DNA from: Desulfohalobium retbaense DSM 5692 | GTDB taxonomy: Bacteria; Desulfobacterota; Desulfovibrionia; Desulfovibrionales; Desulfohalobiaceae | NCBI RefSeq assembly: GCF_000024325.1 | Contig: NC_013223.1 | Coordinates: 2,795,353 to 2,819,352 of the forward strand | Direction: 5' to 3' | DNA length: 24,000 nt | In this document: piece after piece, positions 3,654 to 15,089 of the stretch | How the letters are laid out: every line of letters begins with the position of its first letter | How positions within the stretch are numbered: the stretch's first letter is position 1 | Notes under the pieces: model-generated | Databases searched by the model: none | What the model saw: only the letters and a program-made list of their open reading frames with translations | Told to the model about the DNA's origin: nothing | Translations under genes and position numbers: made by a program

Positions 3654-5606
3654 ATGCAACGCAATCTGAACAAGCGCTTCTTTCAACCAGCGATGATCGT
3701 CCTGATCTATGTGCTTGTCGCCGGAGTCTGGATCGTCTTTTCTGATTCCATTGTCGCCCAATTAGCGCCATCAAGCCATTGGCGCACGACCCTCCAAAGC
3801 CTGAAAGGCCTTTTCTTTGTCGCCGGTACCGGCATTTTGCTCTACGTCCTGATCCGGGGATATGCGGAAAGTCTGCGCCAAAAAGAGCGGCACAACCGTC
3901 TCACCCAGCGCGCAGCCAAAGCCTGCAGTTGGGACTGGGATATCGAAGCAGACCGTTTCACCTGGGCCGGCGACGTCTCCAGTTTTCTAACCGAAGGGGA
4001 CGGCACCTCCCCTTTGCCCCGGACCTATCAAGATGTGCTCCGGCACATTCATCCCGAAGACATTCCGAACTTTGAACGAGCGGTCCAGGAAAGCTTGCTG
4101 CGCGACCAGGAACTCCACTTGGAATTTCGCTGGCAACGGGGCGCCAATACGCGGTGGTTTTTTGCCGTGGGCGAGGTGGAACGCGACCTCACGACGAACA
4201 AGCCCCAGCACTTGCGCGGCATCATCCGCGATATCACCCAACGCAAACAGGCAGAGCAAGAACTCGCCTATAAAAGCGAATGGGACGGTCTCACCGGCCT
4301 GCTCAACCGTTCCTTCTTTCTCAAGCGCCTGGAACAGCTTTTCCAAACCCAGCGCCGCCTGGGGCACTGCTCCTTTGCCGTCCTGCTTTTGGACATCGAC
4401 CGCTTCAGCCGAATCAACGACAGCCTCGGACACTGGGTGGGCGACGCTGTATTGCAGGAAGCCAGCCGCCGATTGGCCAACTTTCTCTCTCCAGCGGATT
4501 CCCTGGCCCGGCTGAGTGCCGATGAATTCGGCATCCTGCTCCAGGCCAGCAACGACCAGGACCAGGTCCTGAGAAGCGCCCACCATATTCTCGAGGTCCT
4601 GAAAACCCCGATGCACCTCTCTCCGCATGACATCAATATCACGGCCAGTATAGGGGTGGTGACCTGTTTCGACGCCAATCCTTACAACAATCCGGAATAT
4701 ATTCTGCGCGATGCCGCCACAGCGATGCGCCAGGCCAAACTCCAGGGCGGCGACCAGATCGCCGCGTTCAAAAAAGCCCTGCACACCCAAGCTTTTGAAG
4801 CCCTGTCCCTGGAGAATCAGCTTCGAAAAAACCTCCGAGACCCGGCTCAACAGGAACTCTTTCTGGCCTTCCAGCCCATCGTCGACCTGGGCAGCGGTGA
4901 GATTGCGGGATTCGAGGCCTTGATCCGCTGGAGGCTGGCCGACGGAACGGTCATTCCGCCCAATCGCTTTATTCCCGTGGCTGAACAAAGCGGATTGATC
5001 CAGCCGCTTGGCAAATGGGTCCTGGATTCGGCCTGTGCGGCACTGGCCGCATTGCGGGCGAATGACCCCAATGCAGTTGACCACATGCATGTCAACGTCA
5101 ATGTGTCCGCCCGCCAATTGGAACAGCACGATTTTGTTCGCGAAATCAATGAACTGCTCCTGATTCACAACCTGCCTGCCCAGACCCTGCGTTTGGAACT
5201 CACTGAGACCGTGCTCATGGAGAACGCCGCCCAGGTCCAGAATTTCCTCGGCCAACTCCAGGAGATCGGCATCGGAGTGGCGGTGGATGACTTCGGAACC
5301 GGATATTCCTCGTTGAGCTATCTGCACCGTTTTTCGATCAACACCTTGAAAATCGATTTGAGTTTTGTCCAAAGCGTTTTGACCAACGAGCACAGCAAAG
5401 CCATCACCCAGGCCATTATTGATATGGCCCAATCCTTGAACAAAACTGTTGTCGCTGAGGGCATTGAAACGCAGGAACAGGCCGCCCTGATAGCAGCGAT
5501 GGGATGCCGGTACGCGCAGGGATTTCTCTTCAGTTACCCCCTTGAGAAGGAAGCGCTTCCGCAATTGCTCGACCAACAGCCCCTTGTGCCGACCCCTCGG
5601 GAATAA
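3654..5606 (+). CDS. Membrane-anchored PAS-GGDEF-EAL c-di-GMP turnover protein; GGDEF degenerate (SADEF), EAL motifs intact
   Basis: 650 aa with two N-terminal TM helices and a PAS-like region (WDWDIEADRFTWAG…). The GGDEF domain reads LLDIDRFSRINDSLGH … RLSADEFGILL (SADEF at 4515..4529). The EAL domain carries EALIRW (4914..4922), NVNVS, ELTE, DDFGTGYSSLSYL, KIDLSF, EGIET and AQGF. RBS AAGGAGAGG. Confidence 0.92.
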   Translation: MQRNLNKRFFQPAMIVLIYVLVAGVWIVFSDSIVAQLAPSSHWRTTLQSLKGLFFVAGTGILLYVLIRGYAESLRQKERHNRLTQRAAKACSWDWDIEADRFTWAGDVSSFLTEGDGTSPLPRTYQDVLRHIHPEDIPNFERAVQESLLRDQELHLEFRWQRGANTRWFFAVGEVERDLTTNKPQHLRGIIRDITQRKQAEQELAYKSEWDGLTGLLNRSFFLKRLEQLFQTQRRLGHCSFAVLLLDIDRFSRINDSLGHWVGDAVLQEASRRLANFLSPADSLARLSADEFGILLQASNDQDQVLRSAHHILEVLKTPMHLSPHDINITASIGVVTCFDANPYNNPEYILRDAATAMRQAKLQGGDQIAAFKKALHTQAFEALSLENQLRKNLRDPAQQELFLAFQPIVDLGSGEIAGFEALIRWRLADGTVIPPNRFIPVAEQSGLIQPLGKWVLDSACAALAALRANDPNAVDHMHVNVNVSARQLEQHDFVREINELLLIHNLPAQTLRLELTETVLMENAAQVQNFLGQLQEIGIGVAVDDFGTGYSSLSYLHRFSINTLKIDLSFVQSVLTNEHSKAITQAIIDMAQSLNKTVVAEGIETQEQAALIAAMGCRYAQGFLFSYPLEKEALPQLLDQQPLVPTPRE

Positions 5607-5632
5607 CACCATGCATCGCAGAGGAGGCTTTT

Positions 5633-6550
5633 TTGGTCACTGATATCGTCTGGGCGGTGGTCCAGATATTTTGCGTCTTTGGCCTTGGCTGGCTGGCTAG
5701 GCATCTCAATTACCTTCAAGGCATGGATATCGGGCGTTTCAGCCGGTTGGCCATCGATTTCCTGATGCCCTGCCTTGTTTTTTCGGCCACCACCGAACAT
5801 TTTGCCACCGAGCGCTTGCACGAACTCTGGCCCCTGCCGGTCATCGCTTTCGCCATCGTGGTCTTTGGGACCTGTGTGGGGGCTGGGGCACGGCTTTTGC
5901 TCAAAAAACGGACAGTGGCGCAACGCAGGACGGTCCACCACCTCTGCGCGGTGAACAACGCCGTTTTTCTCCCGGTGATTCTCGTAGAAAACCTGTGGGG
6001 AGACGCCGCGGTAGCCAATCTCTTTTTCTTCAGCCTCGGAGCGGCACTCGGGCTCTGGAGTATCGGCGTCGTCCTGCTCGGCGGCGGTTCCTGGCGCGAT
6101 GGCGTTCGCCATCTGCTCACACCGACCCACCTCGCCCTGCTCATGGCACTCACCCTGTGTCTTCTGGGAGCGACCGAAGCGATACCAACCATAGTGGCCC
6201 AGACCACCGCCTTTGTCGGTTCGGCCGCCATCCCGCTGGTCCTCTTTCTCGTGGGAGCCAGCCTCTATCCCCTGCCGGATTTCTCTCCCCGGCGGCTTGT
6301 CCTCTTGACCTCCTGCTTGCGCATCATTGGTATCCCGGTCTTGCTGACCCTCATCCTGCGTCAATTGCCCATCGTGGACGACGTCTACAATATGGCTGTC
6401 GTCAACGCCTTCATGCCAGCTGCGGCCATTTCGACCATCTTGACCCACCGCTTTGGTGGCGACCCCCAGCTTGCCGCCAGTACGGTCGTGGCCACCACCC
6501 TAGCCTCACTGATCACCGTGCCCCTCGGCCTAAGCTGGGCCCTGATCTGA
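5633..6550 (+). CDS. AEC (auxin efflux carrier) family transporter
   Basis: 305-aa polytopic membrane protein, about 10 TM. The N-terminal pattern (IFCVFGLGWLARHLNYL…GRFSRLAIDFLMPCLVF) and the C-terminal PAAISTILTHRFGGD are typical of AEC/malonate-type permeases. TTG start is preceded by GAGGAGG at 5 nt. Confidence 0.82.
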   Translation: MVTDIVWAVVQIFCVFGLGWLARHLNYLQGMDIGRFSRLAIDFLMPCLVFSATTEHFATERLHELWPLPVIAFAIVVFGTCVGAGARLLLKKRTVAQRRTVHHLCAVNNAVFLPVILVENLWGDAAVANLFFFSLGAALGLWSIGVVLLGGGSWRDGVRHLLTPTHLALLMALTLCLLGATEAIPTIVAQTTAFVGSAAIPLVLFLVGASLYPLPDFSPRRLVLLTSCLRIIGIPVLLTLILRQLPIVDDVYNMAVVNAFMPAAAISTILTHRFGGDPQLAASTVVATTLASLITVPLGLSWALI

Positions 6551-6684
6551 ACAAAAAAGTGGCCATCCAGCACACCTCTCTCTTGCCAGATCAACCCCTG
6601 CCACCAGATCCAGAAGCCCCCCTGCATTCGTAAAGGTCCTTTGCGCGCAACGCTGCCGGAGTTGGCAGGTGCTTGAAAAGCCCC

Positions 6685-6718
6685 CAATGGCAGCAAAACT
6701 GCGAGACGTTCAAACTCG
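6685..6718 (+). repeat. 34-nt repeat, copy 1, whose + strand reads as a sigma-54 -24/-12 core (TGGCAG-N5-CTGC)
   Basis: caatggcagcaaaactgcgagacgttcaaactcg matches 20747..20780 at 31/34 positions. GG is at 6689-6690 and GC at 6701-6702, exactly 10 nt apart. It sits ~550 nt upstream of the amyloid operon on the same strand. Confidence 0.5.
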
Positions 6719-6792
6719 GACCTACGAATACGCGCGCTAGGACCGCGAACTTTTGGCTCTTCGTCACAGGGCATGGAATTTCAGACGCAAAA

Positions 6793-7029
6793 GTTTGCCG
6801 TCTCTTCTGTGTGCTTCGAGCGAAAGGCCCACACATTTTCTTGGTCCCGCCAAAAGGGGGAAACCGGACCGCGAACTGAATGCTCCCAGGCGGATTCCGG
6901 TGCAACAAGGGCCATCTTCGACACCTAGAGTTCTGTTCCACTTGAGAGTCCGGAGGGGGCAAGGATCCCCCTTTGGCGGGATTGAGAAAATACCGGGCCG
7001 AAAGTGGGCACACAGAAGAGACGGCAAAC
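6793..7029. repeat. Long imperfect palindrome bounded by perfect 22-bp inverted repeats (MITE-like element or structured RNA/UAS)
   Basis: GTTTGCCGTCTCTTCTGTGTGC (6793..6814) is the exact reverse complement of 7008..7029. Inner arms also pair: cccgccaaaaggggga (6846..6861) with tccccctttggcggg (6966..6980), and accgga with tccggt. No credible ORF lies in this interval. Confidence 0.6.
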
Positions 7030-7241
7030 TCCAAAAATCCACTGGATCCGTCAAAGAACCGAACTTTTTTGCGCCGTCCCTTAGGATTTTTGAACAGTCA
7101 GTTGGGCCCACGGCCTCGCGACCATCCGTTAATTGCTGTAAAGACTGTCTTCCCCCCCATTTCCTTCGCTTTTTACGTTCCCTACGCTGAAAGCTTTACA
7201 TCCTGCCTAAATAAAGTCTTGCATTTCGGGTAATTATTTAT

Positions 7242-7257
7242 CGGCACGCCTCTTGCT
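7242..7257 (+). promoter_or_regulatory. Sigma-54 (RpoN) -24/-12 promoter for the amyloid operon
   Basis: cGGCACGcctcTTGCTt compared with the consensus TGGCACG-N4-TTGCW. GG is at 7243-7244 and GC at 7255-7256 with the exact 10-nt spacing. It lies directly upstream of the first ORF of the operon, and a sigma-54 activator is encoded in the same locus. Confidence 0.65.
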
Positions 7258-7269
7258 TGTATCTCTCGC

Positions 7270-7593
7270 ATGAAGACGCCATCTGCCGCCCTTGCCTCCC
7301 TTTTGTTCCTTCTTGCCAGCCTCAGTGGTCCAGGCCCGCTGAGCGCTGGACCACTTTGCCCTCAGGAGAAGACCTCCCAGTCGGCCACGGCATGGCAAAG
7401 TGTGCAGGATGACCAACTCTACGCGGTTTTTGGGCGGTTTTCTCCGGCGACCAGCACAGCCGCTATGCCGAATCCCCCAGGGGATATCATTTTGTGGGAC
7501 GAGGCCAAGGGAAGTTCCCGTGAAGCTGCCCACAGCTCCTCTTCGGGCACCAATATCAGTATCCAACGGACACAGACCCATTTCGACCATTAA
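7270..7593 (+). CDS. Hypothetical small secreted protein occupying the FapA position; coding status uncertain
   Basis: 107-aa ORF with a convincing Sec signal peptide (MKTPSAALASLLFLLASLSGPGPLSA|GP). Its stop lies 19 nt before the next gene. There is no Shine-Dalgarno, and the predicted sigma-54 transcription start (~7268) would make it leaderless. No recognisable family motif. Confidence 0.45.
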   Translation: MKTPSAALASLLFLLASLSGPGPLSAGPLCPQEKTSQSATAWQSVQDDQLYAVFGRFSPATSTAAMPNPPGDIILWDEAKGSSREAAHSSSSGTNISIQRTQTHFDH

Positions 7594-7612
7594 GACCACC
7601 ACGGGGACAGCC

Positions 7613-8242
7613 ATGCTTGGACATCCATCCCGCTCCGCACACCATCTCTGTAAAAGCCTACTTGGAACAGTCCTCGGGATCCTGTTGGCCACGGCAGTCG
7701 CTGCTCAACCGCCGCAAGGCGGAGTGAATGTCAACATCATCGAGGATAACGCCCTGGCGGGTAGCACCGGCGTGATCGGGGTCAATACAGCTGCCGGCGA
7801 CAACCACGTCCAGGCGAACCAATGGAGTATTGGTGTCGGGACAACCGCAGATTTTGGACATGTTGACCAGACCACCCTTTCCATCGGCACGCCTCCAGAA
7901 TTGAGTATCGACCGCATTACAGACAACGCCTTCCAAGGGGTCTCGGGACTTCTGAGCGTGAACCAGGCCGCTGGGAGCGGGTCCGCCGAGAGCAACCAGG
8001 TCTGTATCGGAATCGGCATGGCCACAAACGCCAGACCGGTTTCGGCCAGCAATCTGCGTCAGACGGTGGGTTCCGCCACTGCCTCACGACCCAACGTGGG
8101 AAGTCAGCGGGCGGATATTATAGACGGACAGGCATTCTCCGGGGCCAGCGGTGTGGTCCAGGTCAACCAGTCCGCGGGCTCGGGCAATGGTGTGTCCAAT
8201 CGTGTTCTTATGGACATGGGATTTATGGACGTCACACCCTAA
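7613..8242 (+). CDS. fapB: FapB-like amyloid subunit (secreted, three Fap-type repeats)
   Basis: The true start is taken as ATG 7613, not the 7400 track start, which overlaps the upstream ORF. Signal peptide: …LLGTVLGILLATAVAAQ. Three repeats are present: IEDNALAGSTGVIGVNTAAGDNHVQANQ, ITDNAFQGVSGLLSVNQAAGSGSAESNQ and IIDGQAFSGASGVVQVNQSAGSGNGVSNR. The protein is Gly/Asn/Gln/Ala/Val-rich, and its size (209 aa) and position before the larger repeat protein match FapB. Confidence 0.75.
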   Translation: MLGHPSRSAHHLCKSLLGTVLGILLATAVAAQPPQGGVNVNIIEDNALAGSTGVIGVNTAAGDNHVQANQWSIGVGTTADFGHVDQTTLSIGTPPELSIDRITDNAFQGVSGLLSVNQAAGSGSAESNQVCIGIGMATNARPVSASNLRQTVGSATASRPNVGSQRADIIDGQAFSGASGVVQVNQSAGSGNGVSNRVLMDMGFMDVTP

Positions 8243-8271
8243 CCCAACGTGTAACCAGAGGAGGTTCTCCC

Positions 8272-9573
8272 ATGAAACGGTTTATGAGTGTCGTACTCGG
8301 TTGTGCAATGCTGTTGTGCTTCGGCACCTCAGCCAATGCTCAAGGCCATCCGGCCATCATCGCAGGCCTCGTCGCTGACGCGGAACTCAGCGGCAATCTC
8401 GATCTGACCCTGCAGCTGATGGCCGAAGCCAACATCGGCGTTTATTTCGCCATGGTCGACGCAGATGTCGCAATCGACGGCGATATCGATGTCGACGGGG
8501 TCACCCGCAGTTTGGCGAAGAATGATCAATTCCTGATGATCAATTCGGTGAACAATTACGAAGTTGATAACACCGCTACGGTCTCCGGCGAAGTGTTGAA
8601 GGGTGCTGCCGGCAATATTGGTGTCAATATCGCTGCTGGCGATTTCAATGCCCAAAGCCAGGTCGTCGCGGTTGCCGCTTCCGAACAGGAACGGAGTATG
8701 GCTGAAGCCAAATCCTTCAGTGTCCAAAAGGCAATGTTCAACAGCGCCTGCAACGAAGGGGTGACCAACAAAGCCTTGGCCAAGGGCGATGCGCTCATGG
8801 GCGTCAGCGGCAACATCGGATTGAATATCGCCGCTGGGAACCACAACGGGCAGACGAATATGTTTGCGGCGACAGTGGCCCCATCCCGGGTCTCGGTGGC
8901 CACCGCCTATGTGCAACAGAAAAACATGCACAACACCGTGGGAAACATGCCCCTTGTAGAAGAATACGTCGAAAATGTCCCTGTTAACCTGGGACTTAAT
9001 GCTGGCGGCACCGCTGGATCCACCAACCAAATCGGATTCTACGGAGGTGATACCCAGGGCAGCTTTAATGGCGAGACCTCGGGCATGAGCTACCAGGCCA
9101 GCAACTTCTACCCCGATGTTTGGGCCCGCAACCCGAACTTCCCGATCGACGAGCAACACCCCAATTCGCCAGAGCATCTGGGCCATGTTGACTTCGACGC
9201 CGCCACACAAGGCGCCATCGACAACCCGAACCGCGAGGGCGTCGGCGGAATGGCCTTTGACAACGAAGGCACGGTTGAAGGCGACTACGAAGGCACTGAA
9301 TCCGGTATGTTCATGGGCGGCATCGGCTCCCAGCAAATCCAGCTGACCGGCACTGTCACCGGTGATATCCCTGTCGTCGTAACCCGCTATGTGGGCGCCA
9401 CCAACACCGCGACCCTGAGCAACCGAGTACTCATGAACGCCGAGGGCAATGTCGGTGTCAATGTGGCTGCCGGCACCAACAACCTGCAAGCCAATTCGCT
9501 CTCTGTGAGTTATGTCCCGGCTGCGAACGGCAATATCCCCACTCCTGGCAATGGAGGCGGCGGGGAACAATAA
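8272..9573 (+). CDS. fapC: FapC-like major functional-amyloid subunit (three repeats, two linkers)
   Basis: 433 aa with a strong RBS (GAGGAGG) and signal peptide …CFGTSANA|QG. R1 (8569..8679): NTATVSGEVLKGAAGNIGVNIAAGDFNAQSQ. R2 (8767..8880): NKALAKGDALMGVSGNIGLNIAAGNHNGQTN. R3 (9403..9510): NTATLSNRVLMNAEGNVGVNVAAGTNNLQAN. The core GN(I/V)G(V/L)N(I/V)AAGxxNxQxN matches the repeat I recall from Pseudomonas FapC. A long G/N/E/D-rich second linker separates R2 and R3. Confidence 0.85.
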   Translation: MKRFMSVVLGCAMLLCFGTSANAQGHPAIIAGLVADAELSGNLDLTLQLMAEANIGVYFAMVDADVAIDGDIDVDGVTRSLAKNDQFLMINSVNNYEVDNTATVSGEVLKGAAGNIGVNIAAGDFNAQSQVVAVAASEQERSMAEAKSFSVQKAMFNSACNEGVTNKALAKGDALMGVSGNIGLNIAAGNHNGQTNMFAATVAPSRVSVATAYVQQKNMHNTVGNMPLVEEYVENVPVNLGLNAGGTAGSTNQIGFYGGDTQGSFNGETSGMSYQASNFYPDVWARNPNFPIDEQHPNSPEHLGHVDFDAATQGAIDNPNREGVGGMAFDNEGTVEGDYEGTESGMFMGGIGSQQIQLTGTVTGDIPVVVTRYVGATNTATLSNRVLMNAEGNVGVNVAAGTNNLQANSLSVSYVPAANGNIPTPGNGGGGEQ

Positions 9574-9657
9574 CCGCTAGTGGAAATGGACCTGTAAACA
9601 AAGAGGAGGCGGCCGTGTCAAAACGGCTGTCTCCTCACCCATATCAGGGGAGCGCGC

Positions 9658-10365
9658 ATGAAAAGAAGCAGATGGCATTTCGGACTGGCAAGTACCCTCC
9701 TGCTCTTCTTTGCTCTAAGCCTGGCGAGCCCGGGCTTTTCAGGCACGTTGCAACTCAAGGTGGGGCCAAACGGGTGTTTCATGCGCAAAGAAATCCAAAG
9801 CGTCAAAGAGCTTCGCTACAAAAACATTGTCAGGCAGGGTCTGGACTACAGTTGCGGTTCAGCCGCCCTGGCGACGATCATCAAATACTACTACGGCCGA
9901 AAAAAGCTGACTGAACAGGACATCGTCAAAGATATCCTTGAAAAAGGGGACGATGCGCGGATAAAAGACAAAGGATTTTCATTGCTTGATCTCAAACAAT
10001 ACGCGGAACGGCAAGGCTTCAGGGCTGAAGGGTACAAAATAGAAGCGGATCAATTGTCGCAGCTGAGTATTCCAATCATCGTTCTGATGGAAGTCAAAAA
10101 TTATAAACACTTTGTGGTACTCAAAGGAGTCAAAAACAATAAGGTGTATCTTGGCGATCCGGCCTATGGCCATCGTGTTGTCAAGTTGGAAGAATTTTCC
10201 AAATCCTGGAACAACATCTTTTTAGCCGTTCTCGGCACCAATCCGGACAAAGATCTGTATAAACTCCACCAACTCAATGTCTCTCAAAAAGATGCCTGGA
10301 GTCTTCGTCAGACAGCTCTCCCGCTTCACTTTATGACTCGCCCTTTTGAAATGAATTGTAACTGA
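9658..10365 (+). CDS. fapD: Stand-alone secreted C39-family cysteine peptidase (FapD-like)
   Basis: 235 aa with signal peptide (…FFALSLASPGFSG). C39 catalytic layout: Q60-x5-C66 (RQGLDYSCGSAALATI; TGC at 9853..9855), H151 (KHFVVLKG) and D167-P (YLGDPAYG). There is no ABC transporter domain. It sits immediately downstream of the FapC-like gene, as in fapABCDEF. Confidence 0.85.
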   Translation: MKRSRWHFGLASTLLLFFALSLASPGFSGTLQLKVGPNGCFMRKEIQSVKELRYKNIVRQGLDYSCGSAALATIIKYYYGRKKLTEQDIVKDILEKGDDARIKDKGFSLLDLKQYAERQGFRAEGYKIEADQLSQLSIPIIVLMEVKNYKHFVVLKGVKNNKVYLGDPAYGHRVVKLEEFSKSWNNIFLAVLGTNPDKDLYKLHQLNVSQKDAWSLRQTALPLHFMTRPFEMNCN

Positions 10366-10389
10366 TGTTGCACGAAAAGGGGAAAATAC

Positions 10390-10869
10390 ATGTGGACATA
10401 TAAACAAAGCATCGTTGTCCTCTTCTTTGTATTCGTCTTTCTGGGCGCAGCCCAACCGGCCCAGAGTTCCGGGATCCTGCCCGAGAGTATTCAGGCGCAG
10501 GCTCTCGCGGATACACAACTTGAGGAGATACGGGGAAAGTTCATGGGGTTCTATTTTTCCATGAACTATTCCATGTATTGGGATACGAGCGGCAACCAAT
10601 TTGCCCTGAATGATGCGGCCGGTGGGGCGAATACGGATCTCGTCCGTGCTCCGGGGGATTCCTCGGTCCAGCTCAACAACCCCTTGGGAACGAGCACCGC
10701 CGTCATAGGCGATTTTCAGGGCGGAAGCGGTATTTTCCAAATAAACCAAGTTCCTGGAAACAATAATCTGGTGAATAACAGTCTGGTTCTTGATATAGCC
10801 ATCTTTACACTCCAAGAATCACAAATAGGGCAAATGCAAAGCGTCCTTCAGGATTTTCTCCAATTCTAG
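10390..10869 (+). CDS. Small secreted protein with one degenerate Fap-type repeat (FapE position)
   Basis: 159 aa with RBS AAGGGGA and signal peptide MWTYKQSIVVLFFVFVFLGAAQPAQS|SG. It has a single repeat-like segment, IGDFQGGSGIFQINQVPGNNNLVNNS, and a C-terminal …DFLQF. Confidence 0.8.
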   Translation: MWTYKQSIVVLFFVFVFLGAAQPAQSSGILPESIQAQALADTQLEEIRGKFMGFYFSMNYSMYWDTSGNQFALNDAAGGANTDLVRAPGDSSVQLNNPLGTSTAVIGDFQGGSGIFQINQVPGNNNLVNNSLVLDIAIFTLQESQIGQMQSVLQDFLQF

Positions 10870-10931
10870 TCGTTCACAAGATCGACAATGAACTTGAAGG
10901 ACACCGGCTAGACTCAATTCCCCTTTTGACG

Positions 10932-10987
10932 ACAGGTAGTACGGGAAGCGGATACCTAATGCTTTCAACGTGCTACCTGTTTTTTTG
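10932..10987 (+). terminator. Rho-independent terminator closing the amyloid operon
   Basis: acaggtagtacg (10932..10943) pairs with cgtgctacctgt (10969..10980): 12 bp with 1 mismatch and a 25-nt loop. A T7 run follows, 62 nt after the stop of the 10390..10869 gene. Confidence 0.6.
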
Positions 10988-11135
10988 CTGCTCTTCCATT
11001 TTTTTGTGCTTTATGACAAAACCTGGTTGAAAAGACCGTATTTTCGTTGTAAAAGAGACATAAATAGTCCTCTCCGTTTTTTATTCCATACATATCAACA
11101 TATTAAATCAGAAGCAGAGCACGGAGCGAAATCTG

Positions 11136-12605
11136 ATGCATAGAATTGACATTCGCTGTGAATGCAATTTAGCTGCTCAAGCATTCTCGCCACCCCATTG
11201 CGATGATTGTGAAAGCCGTTACCCGGTGAAGATAATCGATATAAGCTTGGGAGGGGCCAAACTAGTATTCAACACCCTCCCATTCAATAATGACTATTTT
11301 ACTCTCAAGCTTGAAGACTTTCCAAATATTGAAATTGTGGCTTATGTAAAATTTAAAAAAGAAAATCAGGCTATAGTTGTTTTTTATTACGACTCAGTCG
11401 AAAATGCGCAAAAAATAATTGAGATAGTACGAAAACACTACGAACACAAAAACCACAATTACTGTCCCTATTGCGGCCAAACCCACGCCAGTGGAAGTCT
11501 TTTCTGCCCTCATACCCAGTTAAGCTTGAACATTTACGACCCCGCCTACCTCAATGACCACGTCTGTCGAACGCTCCTCAAACGCATCAGTTGGCGATTG
11601 CACAATGTTGATTGCGACAAAGCCTGGTCTATTCTCTCTTCCCTCGACAAACAATTACTCAGTGTGCAGCCCACAACCGCACAATTGGAGATCGTAGGGA
11701 CCTCTCCAGCCATGTTGAATCTCTTTTCACAAATCCGCAAAGTCGCCGCCACCGACCTCCCCGTTCTCATTCTTGGCGAAAGCGGAACCGGTAAAGAGCT
11801 CGCTAGCAAAGCTATATTCGAACGAAGTGACCGCAAATCGAAACCATTTATCGTCATCAACTGTGCAGCCATTCCCGAAACTTTGCTCGAGGCTGAACTT
11901 TTTGGGTACGAACGCGGCGCGTTCACTGGCGCGCACACGACCCGCCACGGCAAATTTGAGCACGCTGACGAAGGCACAATCCTTTTGGATGAAGTCGGAG
12001 ACCTCCCCCAATCCCTTCAAGCGAAGCTCCTGCGCTTTCTTGAAGAAGGGACCATTGAACGCCTCGGCTCCAATACCCCCCGACAACTTGATATCCGCAT
12101 CCTGGCAGCCACCAACCAGGACCTTGAAAGCAAAGTCCACAACGGCACCTTCCGACTTGACCTCTACCACCGGTTGAGCGCCTTCACCATTACCCTTCCC
12201 GCCCTGCGGGACCGCGGCGCCGACAAGACCATCCTCGCCAAATTTTTCCTCAACAAATTCAGTCAAAAATACAATTCCGGTCGCCCCATGGTCTTTTCCA
12301 GCACGGCGATTGGGGCCATCAACGACTATGCCTGGCCCGGCAATATCCGTGAAATGATCAATAAAATCCGCAAGGCAGTCGTCATAGCCGACTCGCATAC
12401 TATTAGCACGGAAGATCTGGGGCTCCATACATCCCAACCCACGTCATTGGGCGCCCAAAATGAGGGACGGAAAAAGAAAATTGACAAAGCGACCCTCCTT
12501 GAAACGCTGGATGCATGCAGTTGGAACAAAAGCCTGGCTGCCAAAAGGTTATGCATAAGCAGACCGACATTGTACAAACTGACACGGGAGTACGGACTTC
12601 TATGA
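11136..12605 (+). CDS. Sigma-54-dependent transcriptional activator (bEBP) with N-terminal PilZ domain and Cys-rich linker: PilZ-AAA+-Fis HTH
   Basis: 489 aa. PilZ motifs: RIDIR (RxxxR, 11142..11156) and DISLGG (DxSxxG, 11238..11255). A CPYCGQTHASGSLFCPH zinc-ribbon-like segment follows. AAA+ motifs: Walker A GESGTGKE, GAFTGA (11916..11933), Walker B LLDEVG and the arginine-finger region RLDLYHRL. C-terminal Fis-type HTH: NKSLAAKRLCISRPTLYKLTREYGL. There is no receiver, GAF or PAS domain. Confidence 0.9.
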   Translation: MHRIDIRCECNLAAQAFSPPHCDDCESRYPVKIIDISLGGAKLVFNTLPFNNDYFTLKLEDFPNIEIVAYVKFKKENQAIVVFYYDSVENAQKIIEIVRKHYEHKNHNYCPYCGQTHASGSLFCPHTQLSLNIYDPAYLNDHVCRTLLKRISWRLHNVDCDKAWSILSSLDKQLLSVQPTTAQLEIVGTSPAMLNLFSQIRKVAATDLPVLILGESGTGKELASKAIFERSDRKSKPFIVINCAAIPETLLEAELFGYERGAFTGAHTTRHGKFEHADEGTILLDEVGDLPQSLQAKLLRFLEEGTIERLGSNTPRQLDIRILAATNQDLESKVHNGTFRLDLYHRLSAFTITLPALRDRGADKTILAKFFLNKFSQKYNSGRPMVFSSTAIGAINDYAWPGNIREMINKIRKAVVIADSHTISTEDLGLHTSQPTSLGAQNEGRKKKIDKATLLETLDACSWNKSLAAKRLCISRPTLYKLTREYGLL

Positions 12606-12774
12606 GGGCTGACTGTTGAAAAATTCCTTTTAACACAGGTTGTTCACAAAACCCACAGAGTTGGCGACACAACGTTCCAGATCACAGCGTATACATGCAA
12701 AGGTACGTGTTGGAACATATTGCAGTTTTGTTGCCATTGGGAAGGCTTGAGCGACCTGATAGGAGGGTGGTTCT

Positions 12775-13293
12775 ATGCTGAAAAAATGTCTCCCCGCTTT
12801 TTTGCTTGTTCTATGCTTCGCCCCTCAACTGGCTCTGGCACAGGCAAAAATTGGTTTTTTTGATCTGCAGGAAATCATTCGCAGTTCTGAGGCTGGCAAG
12901 CAGTCCCAACAAGAATTGCGCCAGTTTGTTGAATCCCAGCACGCCCTCCTGCGATCTAAGCGTGACAACATCGAAAAGGCCCAAAAAGCGCTGCAAGATG
13001 CCCCAAAAAACAATGGTGAGCGGAAAAAACTGCAACAGCAATTAAATGAACAGATTGATGAGTACCGAAGCCTCAGCTCGCAATACCGCAGCGAACTCCA
13101 AAAAAGAGATGCCGCATTGACAAACTCAATAAATCGTGACGTACAGGGCATCGTTCACCGCATAGCGCAACAGATGAAGTTGACCTTTGTCTTCGAAACC
13201 AATGGGTGCGGAATAGTTGTTTATCCAGAATCTACCGATATCACAGAAGAAGTTATTCAAGAATACAACTCCGCCTTGATTTCTCAAAAGTGA
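12775..13293 (+). CDS. Skp/OmpH-family periplasmic chaperone
   Basis: 172 aa with RBS AGGAGGG and signal peptide …CFAPQLALA|QA. It opens with the OmpH signature KIGFFDLQEIIRSSEAGKQSQQEL, followed by a long K/Q/E-rich coiled-coil. Confidence 0.85.
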   Translation: MLKKCLPAFLLVLCFAPQLALAQAKIGFFDLQEIIRSSEAGKQSQQELRQFVESQHALLRSKRDNIEKAQKALQDAPKNNGERKKLQQQLNEQIDEYRSLSSQYRSELQKRDAALTNSINRDVQGIVHRIAQQMKLTFVFETNGCGIVVYPESTDITEEVIQEYNSALISQK

Positions 13294-13332
13294 TTTTGAC
13301 CATTCTGGACTTCAACCTATGGAGGGCTTGGT

Positions 13333-14322
13333 ATGTTGCGTGTTATAAAACCAACCATTTACATCGCCTGCTTCCTTTTTTTCTGGACATCGATCTCCCC
13401 TGTCTATGGACAATCCAACTCCACAACCTCTCCCAAGGATGAAACAACAGAAATCGAACAGGGAGGAGCCCTCCTGGATCCTGGTCAATTTATTTGGGAG
13501 CCCGGCATACAGTACTCCCATACATCACGGACACGACTTTCCATCAGTGGTTTCACGATCTTTGAGGCTATTGTCTTAGGAAGAATTCAAACTGAAGACT
13601 CAAAAAAAGATGTCATCATGCCGTATATGAACTTCAAAGCAGGACTTTTAAAGAATCTCCAACTTGATATTAAAGTTCCATTTTTATATAGACGTGACCG
13701 TATCACTTCAGATAGCAATGATGACGACGAAAAAATCATAACTGACGCGAACCTCGGAGATATAGAAGCTGCGCTTTATACCCAGGTTCTTCGTGAACGG
13801 GGCGCGATTCCGGATTTAATCATAAACACCAGAGTCAAAAGCAGAACCGGCCAAGATCCGTATGACCTGGAAACAGACGATGACGATGATCCCACAGAAC
13901 TTCCCACAGGAAGTGGTCATTGGGGAGTGTCATGGGGATTAACAGCCTCGAAAAGCAGCGACCCTGCTCTCCTTTTTGCCTCTTTAAATTATTACTATAA
14001 TATAAAGCGAGATATTGGCGATGACATTGGCGAAATAGAACCAGGGGATAGCATAGAATACGGCTTTGGCCTCGCCTACGCTTTAAATGAACGACTCTCC
14101 AGCAGCATCTTTTACCAGCAGCGTATTTATGACAAAACCAAACAAAATGGGGAAGGGATAGACGGAAGCGATCTCAATGTCAGCACTCTCTATTTTGGCG
14201 CCAATTACGCCCTCTCACCGCAGCGCAGTATCAGCGTTTCCCTGGGCACCGGGCTTTCCGAGGACGCACCGGACGTCACCCTCCAGGTGAGTATGCCTAT
14301 TCTCTTCGGGCTGGACGGATAA
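13333..14322 (+). CDS. Outer-membrane beta-barrel protein (MetA-pathway/transporter-like); candidate secretion pore of the locus
   Basis: 329 aa with RBS GGAGGG and a signal peptide (…FFWTSISPVYG|QS). Amphipathic beta strands alternate throughout. LGDIEAALY and LPTGSGHWGVSWGL motifs resemble small OM channel families, and acidic loops are present (DSNDDDE, ETDDDDDP). The gene starts 39 nt after the skp-like gene. Confidence 0.75.
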   Translation: MLRVIKPTIYIACFLFFWTSISPVYGQSNSTTSPKDETTEIEQGGALLDPGQFIWEPGIQYSHTSRTRLSISGFTIFEAIVLGRIQTEDSKKDVIMPYMNFKAGLLKNLQLDIKVPFLYRRDRITSDSNDDDEKIITDANLGDIEAALYTQVLRERGAIPDLIINTRVKSRTGQDPYDLETDDDDDPTELPTGSGHWGVSWGLTASKSSDPALLFASLNYYYNIKRDIGDDIGEIEPGDSIEYGFGLAYALNERLSSSIFYQQRIYDKTKQNGEGIDGSDLNVSTLYFGANYALSPQRSISVSLGTGLSEDAPDVTLQVSMPILFGLDG

Positions 14323-14480
14323 GGAGAAGCACCGCTTTGAATCAAGGGCCAAGACGGGTGGAATAGGGACAGGAGAGGGAGTCGCTCTCAAACGGCGAGC
14401 CGACTGGGGAGTATTGCCAAGCGTTTCATCTCACAGGTCGCCGGTGTAGCAACCGAAAATGACCGCGGAGACTAACGCAA

Positions 14481-14512
14481 AAAGGGGTTACAGCTTAAGC
14501 TGTAACCCCTTT
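14481..14512 (-). terminator. Strong hairpin terminator, effectively bidirectional
   Basis: aaaggggttacagc-ttaa-gctgtaacccctt is a perfect 13-14 bp stem. On the minus strand it is followed by TTTTTGCG, just downstream of the tRNA-Phe 3' end. On the plus strand it is followed by TTTG, downstream of the OM barrel gene. Confidence 0.8.
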
Positions 14513-14519
14513 GCATTCA

Positions 14520-14595
14520 TGGTGCCGAGGAACGGAATCGAACCGCTGACACGGGGATTTTCAGTCCCCTGCTCTACCGACTGAGCTACCTCGGC
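14520..14595 (-). tRNA. tRNA-Phe (GAA)
   Basis: The reverse complement folds as a 76-nt cloverleaf. Acceptor GCCGAGG/CCTCGGC; D arm GCTCAGTCGGTAGAGC; anticodon stem GGGGA/TCCCC with loop CTGAAAA; T arm AGCGGTTCGATTCCGTT; encoded CCA. Confidence 0.95.
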
Positions 14596-14627
14596 GCATG
14601 GAAGCGCTTTCCCGTACGAAAGCGGGA

Positions 14628-14714
14628 TGGTGCCGAAGGGGAGATTCGAACTCCCACGGGCTGGTGCCCACTAGACCCTGAACCTAGCGTGTCTACCAAT
14701 TCCACCACTTCGGC
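14628..14714 (-). tRNA. tRNA-Leu (CAG), class II with long variable arm
   Basis: The reverse complement is GCCGAAGTGGTGGAATTGGTAGACACGCTAGGTTCAGGGTCTAGTGGGCACCAGCCCGTGGGAGTTCGAATCTCCCCTTCGGCACCA. Anticodon loop TTCAGGG (CAG), long variable arm, T loop TTCGAAT, encoded CCA. Confidence 0.93.
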
Positions 14715-15089
14715 AGCGGGAGAAAGATGTATCCAAATCAGGCCCGGTTGGCAACCCCTTTTTTCAGACTTCCACCAATTTTTTGGATCTTATAACTCGA
14801 TATGTACATTTAACGATCTGAAATGTTTTATTAATTTCCCAGAAGGCCCGTTCTTGCGACGCGCTTCGTTTTGGGATACGTAAAAGGGCTCTTTTCAGGA
14901 CGGAATGCCTTCACGCCGAAAGAGCAACCTCCCCTCCCGCTGGGCCTCAATGCCCCAGACAAACGGCGGGCGAATCGCCCAGGGTTGAAGCGGGTCTTTT
15001 TTCCGAACACGCGGAAATGGGTTTCGGCGCTGATTGCCACTGAACACATTGCCACGGGCTGTATAACAGAGACCAAGTGGACGATATAT

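Follow-up and report, generated by a model that had tools for sequence, protein, structure and literature searches.

Why should a functional-amyloid gene cluster encode, immediately beside the gene for its outer-membrane channel, its own copy of a periplasmic chaperone of the Skp/OmpH family? The question is raised by a 24,000-nucleotide stretch of the Desulfohalobium retbaense DSM 5692 genome (contig NC_013223.1, positions 2,795,353 to 2,819,352; hereafter the window, to which coordinates refer unless another locus is named). Positions 7242-14512 of this window constitute a Fap-type functional-amyloid cluster comprising fapB, fapC, fapD, a gene in the fapE position, a PilZ-containing sigma-54 activator (ebp), skp and fapF. 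The last two genes, both on the forward strand and both starting with ATG, are a 172-aa Skp/OmpH paralogue (12775..13293) and a 329-aa outer-membrane beta-barrel (13333..14322), separated by 39 nt. A preliminary description of this pair had proposed a system-specific Skp copy and a short barrel replacing FapF, with the coiled-coil function of the canonical channel split off into the Skp protein. Its coordinates and gap proved exact, and its Skp-like and beta-barrel assignments were confirmed by a whole-model match to Pfam PF03938 and by an AlphaFold model of the barrel. As read from the sequence, a GGAGG-type ribosome site lies ~8 nt 5' of each open reading frame (ORF), and both products carry a signal-peptide-like N-terminus. 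Given the 39-nt gap and the lack of a terminator in between, skp and fapF are probably co-transcribed. No promoter for the pair could be assigned from the sequence upstream of skp; a candidate sigma-54 site (TGGAAC-N-TTGCA at 12711-12724) was rejected, since it has GG-N8-GC spacing and its GG is not kept in L105/L106, the window's nearest relative.

The barrel is itself a FapF homologue rather than some other barrel in FapF's place, since the FapF model, a profile comparison and the fold all agree. The protein matches the NCBIfam FapF model NF058560 with E 1.2e-49 over profile positions 109-420 of 420, at a score (169 bits) far under the equivalog cut-off of 700, and a profile built from 31 members of its family (A1) matches PDB chain 5O65_A with E 3.8e-70 (chain 12-334). 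The AlphaFold model (pLDDT 85.5, with low confidence in the plug helix) is a beta-barrel that matches the crystallised FapF entries 5O65/5O67/5O68 with TMt 0.82-0.88 and 28-29% identity. By Foldseek its match to FapF (5O65_B, E 8e-24) is closer than that to the next family by fold, the COG4313/MetA-type channel 4RL8 (E 5e-13). A MetA-pathway or OmpW-like channel was rejected as an identity, with Pfam Phenol_MetA_deg yielding only a partial match (E 1e-8) and FapF performing far better by both profile and fold.

What the barrel is predicted to lack is the N-terminal periplasmic coiled coil and its linker, because the NF058560 match begins at position 109, leaving positions 1-108 unmatched, and the conserved GG plug motif is reached after only 43 residues, counting the signal peptide. 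The protein is thus a natural 'FapF-beta', consisting of a plug and a 12-strand-type barrel with the coiled coil absent. The absence of the periplasmic coiled coil noted in the preliminary description therefore stands, but the notion of a replacement does not, the barrel itself being FapF. Hand mapping of plug residues on the A1 profile alignment places Gln43 (with Glu42 adjacent) at the position of E98 and Ser319 at that of K401, so that the E98-K401 plug-to-wall salt bridge would not be kept; F102 maps to Leu47 (invariant in A1), R157 to Lys102 and E111 to Glu56. PTG-type motifs and the E111-equivalent Glu56 are retained, and comparison with L106 gave a ratio of nonsynonymous to synonymous divergence (dN/dS) of 0.10 for fapF.

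The neighbouring protein is a Skp-family member over its full length, matching PF03938 with E 2.2e-25 and 90 bits (cut-off 32.4) across model positions 1-140 of 141. Its predicted structure (pLDDT 84.5) is that of a Skp protomer, with a small beta body and a long helical hairpin about as long as that of E. coli Skp (strands 26-29, 138-141 and 153-155; helices 39-75 and 81-133). The top structural match is SkpA from a type IX secretion system (T9SS; 8GL8_C, E 1.4e-6), with E. coli Skp matching about as well (1SG2_C, TMt 0.83; 1U2M_C, 0.80; TMt 0.77-0.83 over the SkpA and E. coli Skp matches). The 2.9-Mb genome, 99.98% complete, contains exactly two OmpH genes. The second is the canonical skp (G000:C1:2531960-2532385), located between bamA (942 aa) and lpxD-fabZ-lpxA, and the paralogue lies outside this housekeeping position, between ebp and fapF. 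With dN/dS of 0.17 relative to L106, compared with 0.07-0.08 for fapD, fapE and ebp, the skp paralogue is by its substitution pattern a functional gene under purifying selection, albeit with the weakest constraint among the accessory genes. The paralogue is Gln-rich (20 Q) and near-neutral (pI 6.95 after a crude signal-peptide cut; housekeeping copy, pI 8.9); charge was discarded as a mark of the Fap-linked Skps, the two groups showing no consistent difference (pI 6.6-10.0 versus 6.7-9.7). Nor is the paralogue a FapA: the FapA model NF058556 has no match to it, or anywhere else in the genome at E <= 1, in agreement with the lack of FapA in the preliminary description.

We examined the context of fapF in 80 FapF-encoding loci fetched from species-representative genomes. 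An OmpH-family ORF adjoins fapF in loci L007, L008, L009, L012, L013 and L017, in the order fapF-skp and with gaps of 10-51 nt, whereas L105/L106 share the window order ebp-skp-fapF. A Dissulfurispira contig reads fapBC-fapBC-C39-fapF-OmpH. The pair thus occurs in both orders, skp-fapF in the window and L105/L106 and fapF-skp elsewhere, and its spacing ranges from a 1-nt overlap to 51 nt. Because at least 11 further loci, drawn from several lineages, show the pairing as well, the adjacency is not due to chance. Across genomes, the barrel is both related to FapF and found together with fap genes, as the preliminary description had expected of a true component of the system.

In a first phylogenetic tree the linked Skps formed one clade (95/98 support), distinct from the housekeeping copies that their genomes also encode. 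A word-seeded search for further Skp relatives returned only 2 matches, and was replaced by an exhaustive search, in which 1.84 billion representative proteins were compared with a profile built from the linked Skps (A2). Scores higher than that of the best bamA-linked Skp examined (P0131, 122 bits) were obtained for nine clusters, encompassing seven single-domain Skps and two tandem-Skp fusions (P0129 and P0130). Among the single-domain clusters with informative context, five of six are fapF-adjacent: P0122, P0123 and P0124 are already known linked Skp groups, P0125 occurs as fapF-skp-PilZ and P0128 as fapF-skp; the contig of P0127 is too short to read its context. The enlarged Skp tree contains a clade (99/96 support) with 12 fapF-adjacent members plus P0126 and P0127, spanning the Syntrophales, the Nitrospirota and the lineage of the window, and 12 of its 13 informative members are immediate neighbours of fapF, on one side or the other. 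The fusions, with three (P0129, 513 aa) and two (P0130, 348 aa) tandem Skp/OmpH domains, have housekeeping Skps as their nearest relatives.

On the channel side, the FapF tree places all Skp-linked barrels inside one subclade of 16 (97% support), which includes Skp-free Thermodesulfobacteriaceae and L005, together with L020, which lies on a contig too short for a judgement. The skp-fapF combination is genuine and conserved, and it goes back to one origin. As judged from these trees and gene contexts, the skp gene of the window is a system-specific second copy, from a small lineage found almost only beside short fapF genes, which upholds the preliminary assignment of a dedicated copy with the housekeeping one elsewhere. 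Skp would have joined a Fap system in which the coiled coil was already absent and then been lost in some lineages or, alternatively, been gained just inside the FapF subclade.

Short FapF proteins, with 35-57 residues before the GG motif, were identified in at least 30 of the 80 loci, their hosts being nearly all Thermodesulfobacteriota, Nitrospirota or unclassified 'delta' metagenome-assembled genomes. Most Pseudomonadota loci encode 100-240 residues before the motif, many with obvious heptad repeats, and a few loci have a long N-terminus in which such repeats are not evident. The FapF coiled coil of Pseudomonas has been described as essential and as present in all homologues (PMC5557850, PMC6173795), with substrate recruitment as its proposed role (PMC5557850), and a FapF-beta construct devoid of it, although able to enter the outer membrane, fails to support secretion of FapC (Rouse et al. 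2017, PMC5557850). Dueholm et al. knew of just one Fap system from a deltaproteobacterium (PMC3792158). As far as the searched literature goes, the short FapF, common in nature, is yet undescribed. Neighbour clustering identified no other chaperone-like family beside Skp-free short fapF genes, only a lipoprotein-like ORF in one subclade. Two Dissulfurispira-type contigs (L108 2083-3617 and L107 2972-4507) carry a Fap cluster without the E-position gene and a 320-aa FapF without the conserved E-x-GG-x-LL plug segment; in L107, the OmpH gene next to fapF is split into ORFs of 98 and 60 aa.

What, then, might the paralogue do? Skp proteins act as holdases on unfolded, beta-rich clients. The role that we tentatively favour, while granting it somewhat less than an even chance, is that of a Fap-dedicated periplasmic chaperone of the Skp family, escorting amyloid subunits to a FapF channel devoid of its coiled coil. 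Fap subunits would cross the inner membrane via Sec, and the helical cavity of a Skp-like trimer may then capture FapB, FapC and the E-position protein while they are unfolded and prone to aggregate, preventing their periplasmic nucleation into amyloid or their degradation, and pass them on to the FapF pore. Skp would in this manner supply in trans the substrate capture and chaperoning that in Pseudomonas are ascribed to FapA together with the coiled coil of FapF. We favour an escort role because it asks for nothing beyond the established biochemistry of Skp proteins, because the system is without FapA, and because Skp-free short FapFs indicate that the channel itself needs no Skp.

Several observations weigh against such an assignment. 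The majority of short FapFs have no Skp neighbour, Skp-free examples occurring in the Thermodesulfobacteriaceae, in L005 and L109, and in more distant clades; since short FapFs are so common and mostly without this neighbour, Skp is an accessory and no requirement, and it need not substitute for the coiled coil. In five genomes that encode a short FapF but no linked Skp (from Thermodesulfobacterium, Thermodesulfatator, Thermosulfurimonas and L005), a single OmpH gene exceeds the family cut-off, compared with 2-3 in genomes with a linked Skp. The preliminary idea that the coiled-coil function had been divided between two proteins is accordingly weakened, coiled-coil-less FapFs being widespread and most of them unaccompanied. 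Furthermore, skp is paired with fapF and not with the subunit genes, which suits a channel-directed role equally well, and many Fap systems function with no fapA (PMC3792158), so that nothing has to replace FapA. Lastly, the linked-clade member P0126 (L113 4749-5300) has no fap gene on its 9.4-kb contig. The neighbours of P0126, the sole exception to the pairing, are MFS, methyltransferase, TilS-like and EamA genes.

The pairing with fapF, on either side of the gene, also bears on a second reading, to which we assign a small but real chance, in which a Skp-like trimer is a docked part of the translocon, sitting on the periplasmic face or on the short N-terminal tail of the FapF trimer. There it would supply in trans the kind of three-fold helical module that the N-terminal coiled coil provides in Pseudomonas FapF, gating plug release or positioning substrates in the manner of T9SS SkpA. 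Skp and FapF are both trimers, which would match in three-fold symmetry. The best fold match of the paralogue is SkpA as seen in the SprA translocon complex, where the SkpA trimer serves as a structural component of an outer-membrane export machine and encloses the SprA N-terminus (PMC10994853), and in Pseudomonas the coiled coil is required for secretion, full-length FapF showing an open channel (PMC5557850). Set against this, the coiled coil was lost earlier and far more widely than Skp was gained, short FapFs in single-Skp genomes presumably work without a dedicated Skp, short FapFs look alike in their N-terminal tails whether or not they are Skp-linked, and E. coli Skp fits the predicted fold about as well as SkpA does. 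The combined proposal that a dedicated Skp trimer docks under the short FapF trimer, captures unfolded subunits and controls plug opening appears doubtful to us.

Quite unlikely, in our estimate, is a private assembly chaperone, with the paralogue carrying unfolded FapF, made in a burst on operon induction, to BAM. The probable co-transcription of adjacent skp and fapF genes would be in accord with such a function, and outer-membrane protein biogenesis is the sole established role of Skp (PMC10994853); however, every genome examined has a housekeeping Skp, which serves short FapFs elsewhere, and no special factor is needed for Pseudomonas FapF-beta to become inserted in the outer membrane of E. 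coli (PMC5557850). Very unlikely is a lack of any specific link, with skp as a generic spare copy or a passenger of a horizontally moving block, for although the block is low in GC at third codon positions (GC3) and abuts tRNA genes, FapF was scarcely found among the genomes searched in the order and P0126 lies apart from fap genes, the accidental neighbour is disfavoured by a phylogeny in which the Fap-linked Skps are monophyletic across the Syntrophales, the Nitrospirota and the window's lineage and nearly all adjoin fapF, in a pair that outlasts rearrangement of the remaining cluster and with skp under purifying selection. The escort role remains our preferred account of the paralogue.

The remainder of the cluster conforms to the Fap type. 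Its fapB-like minor amyloid subunit gene (7613..8242, forward strand; ~209 aa, with the longest ORF starting at 7400) encodes a protein matching NF058557 with E 6e-24, whose L106 orthologue is called as 209 aa, matches Pfam FapBC and is 92% identical. The fapC-like major subunit gene (8272..9573, forward) encodes a 433-aa protein of pI 4.3 that matches the NCBIfam FapC model NF058558 with E 6.5e-38 and has an orthologue with a Pfam FapBC match. It is followed by fapD (9658..10365, forward), encoding a 235-aa secreted C39 peptidase (NF058616, E 2e-56; Pfam Peptidase_C39, E 5e-27), and by the gene for a 159-aa protein in the FapE position (10390..10869, forward), the slot between fapD and fapF. 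The latter protein does not match the FapE model NF058559, but its orthologue has a weak Pfam FapBC match, and neighbour clustering places its homologues in the same fapD-fapF slot in 14 other loci.

The next gene, ebp (11136..12605, forward), encodes an enhancer-binding protein for sigma-54 with PilZ (E 1.8e-4), zinc-ribbon, Sigma54_activat (E 8e-69) and HTH_8 regions, and homologues of this PilZ sigma-54 activator flank fapF in 41 of 81 loci by neighbour clustering. A sigma-54 promoter-like site, CGGCACGCCTCTTGCT, lies upstream of fapB (7242..7257, forward strand). It is the sole match within the cluster to TGGYAYN5TTGCW at 1 mismatch and has the correct GG-N10-GC spacing; the whole window contains 3 such matches against 2.6 expected, a count not above chance. 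The site is plausible as a promoter because of its placement upstream of fapB and because the cluster encodes a sigma-54 activator. In L109 (5401-9005), a locus with a Skp-free short FapF, a GAF-GGDEF diguanylate cyclase gene is found between fapF and the PilZ sigma-54 activator gene, a neighbour that fits control of such Fap clusters by cyclic di-GMP. A possibly coding 107-aa ORF with a signal-peptide-like N-terminus (7270-7593, forward) occupies the interval between the promoter-like site and fapB; as a stand-in for FapA it was set aside, its conservation being confined to the near-identical relative L106 (DNA ~96%) and hence uninformative. The cluster ends in a perfect, terminator-like hairpin read from the sequence (AAAGGGGTTACAGC..GCTGTAACCCCTTT, 14481..14512), detected as a reverse self-match and kept in L105 and L106.

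Beyond the hairpin, ARAGORN identified tRNA-Phe and tRNA-Leu genes on the reverse strand (14520..14714), which bound a block of low GC. GC3 is 0.46-0.57 in fapD, fapE, ebp, skp and fapF, confirming the composition that the preliminary description had seen shared by the pair and the fapD/E-like genes, and 0.63-0.73 in fapB, fapC and the flanking genes. Among 30 genomes of the same order (G011-G040), FapF was not found in 29, and the remaining one gave a weak match with 26% identity. Because it is patchy within the order, abuts the two tRNA genes and has low GC3, the Fap cluster has probably been mobile over evolutionary time. Alignment of window positions 4993-14741 with L106 revealed 96% identity in the upstream flank, 91% in the fapB region and 84% in the fapD-fapF block, with synonymous divergence (dS) of 0.19 for fapB and 0.54-1.12 from fapD through fapF. 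The differences in dS and identity between fapB with its flank and the fapD-fapF block suggest a mosaic history, in which the low-GC 3' block recombined or was replaced. Upstream of the fap promoter-like site, ~305 bp of the window (6755-7059) are absent from the otherwise 96%-identical L106; this segment coincides with a 237-bp palindrome (6793-7029) and looks like an insertion resembling a miniature inverted-repeat transposable element.

Current models of Fap secretion rest on Pseudomonas. The locus described here belongs to a large, undescribed Fap group of the Thermodesulfobacteriota and Nitrospirota, with a channel without coiled coil and without FapA, of which one subclade has recruited its own Skp. 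Full-text literature searches found no paper mentioning FapC with OmpH, nor any linking Fap with Skp, the sole co-mention of FapF and Skp having matched an author's initials in a reference list. The pair offers a handle on how amyloid subunits are prevented from doing harm in the periplasm and passed to an unpowered pore, and on what the periplasmic domain of FapF actually does. If the dedicated role is true, Fap would be a second secretion system with a system-specific Skp paralogue. Were the docked arrangement true, T9SS SkpA would be joined by a second, independent example of a Skp scaffold built into an outer-membrane secretion machine, and the arrangement would explain why natural 'FapF-beta' channels work where the engineered one does not.

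Among known systems, the closest counterpart of the channel is FapF of Pseudomonas sp. UK4 (5O65/5O67/5O68; PMC5557850), which is homologous in plug and beta-barrel and is likewise encoded with fapB, fapC, fapD and an E-position gene, but has a ~80-residue N-terminal coiled coil and linker that the window FapF lacks. The latter is the natural equivalent of the crystallised FapF-beta, which fails to secrete FapC in the Pseudomonas/E. coli assay (PMC5557850). The paralogue shares with E. coli Skp (1SG2, 1U2M) and with housekeeping Skp its full-length Pfam family, protomer fold, similar size and signal peptide, and differs from the bamA-skp-lpxD copy in lying outside that cluster and in belonging to a separate clade. 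SkpA of the Flavobacterium johnsoniae T9SS Extended Translocon (8GL8; Lauber et al. 2024, PMC10994853) provides a precedent for a Skp homologue recruited to a specific outer-membrane export machine. It belongs to a different phylum and secretion system, binds the SprA N-terminus and has a C-terminal extension, and at 18% identity it shows no sequence kinship with the window Skp beyond the family, so that the two are likened by fold only. Unrelated to the window Skp in both sequence and fold, the periplasmic anti-amyloid chaperones FapA of Pseudomonas and CsgC/CsgE of the curli system have the same job as the one proposed for it here, that of keeping subunits soluble in the periplasm and delivering them to the pore.

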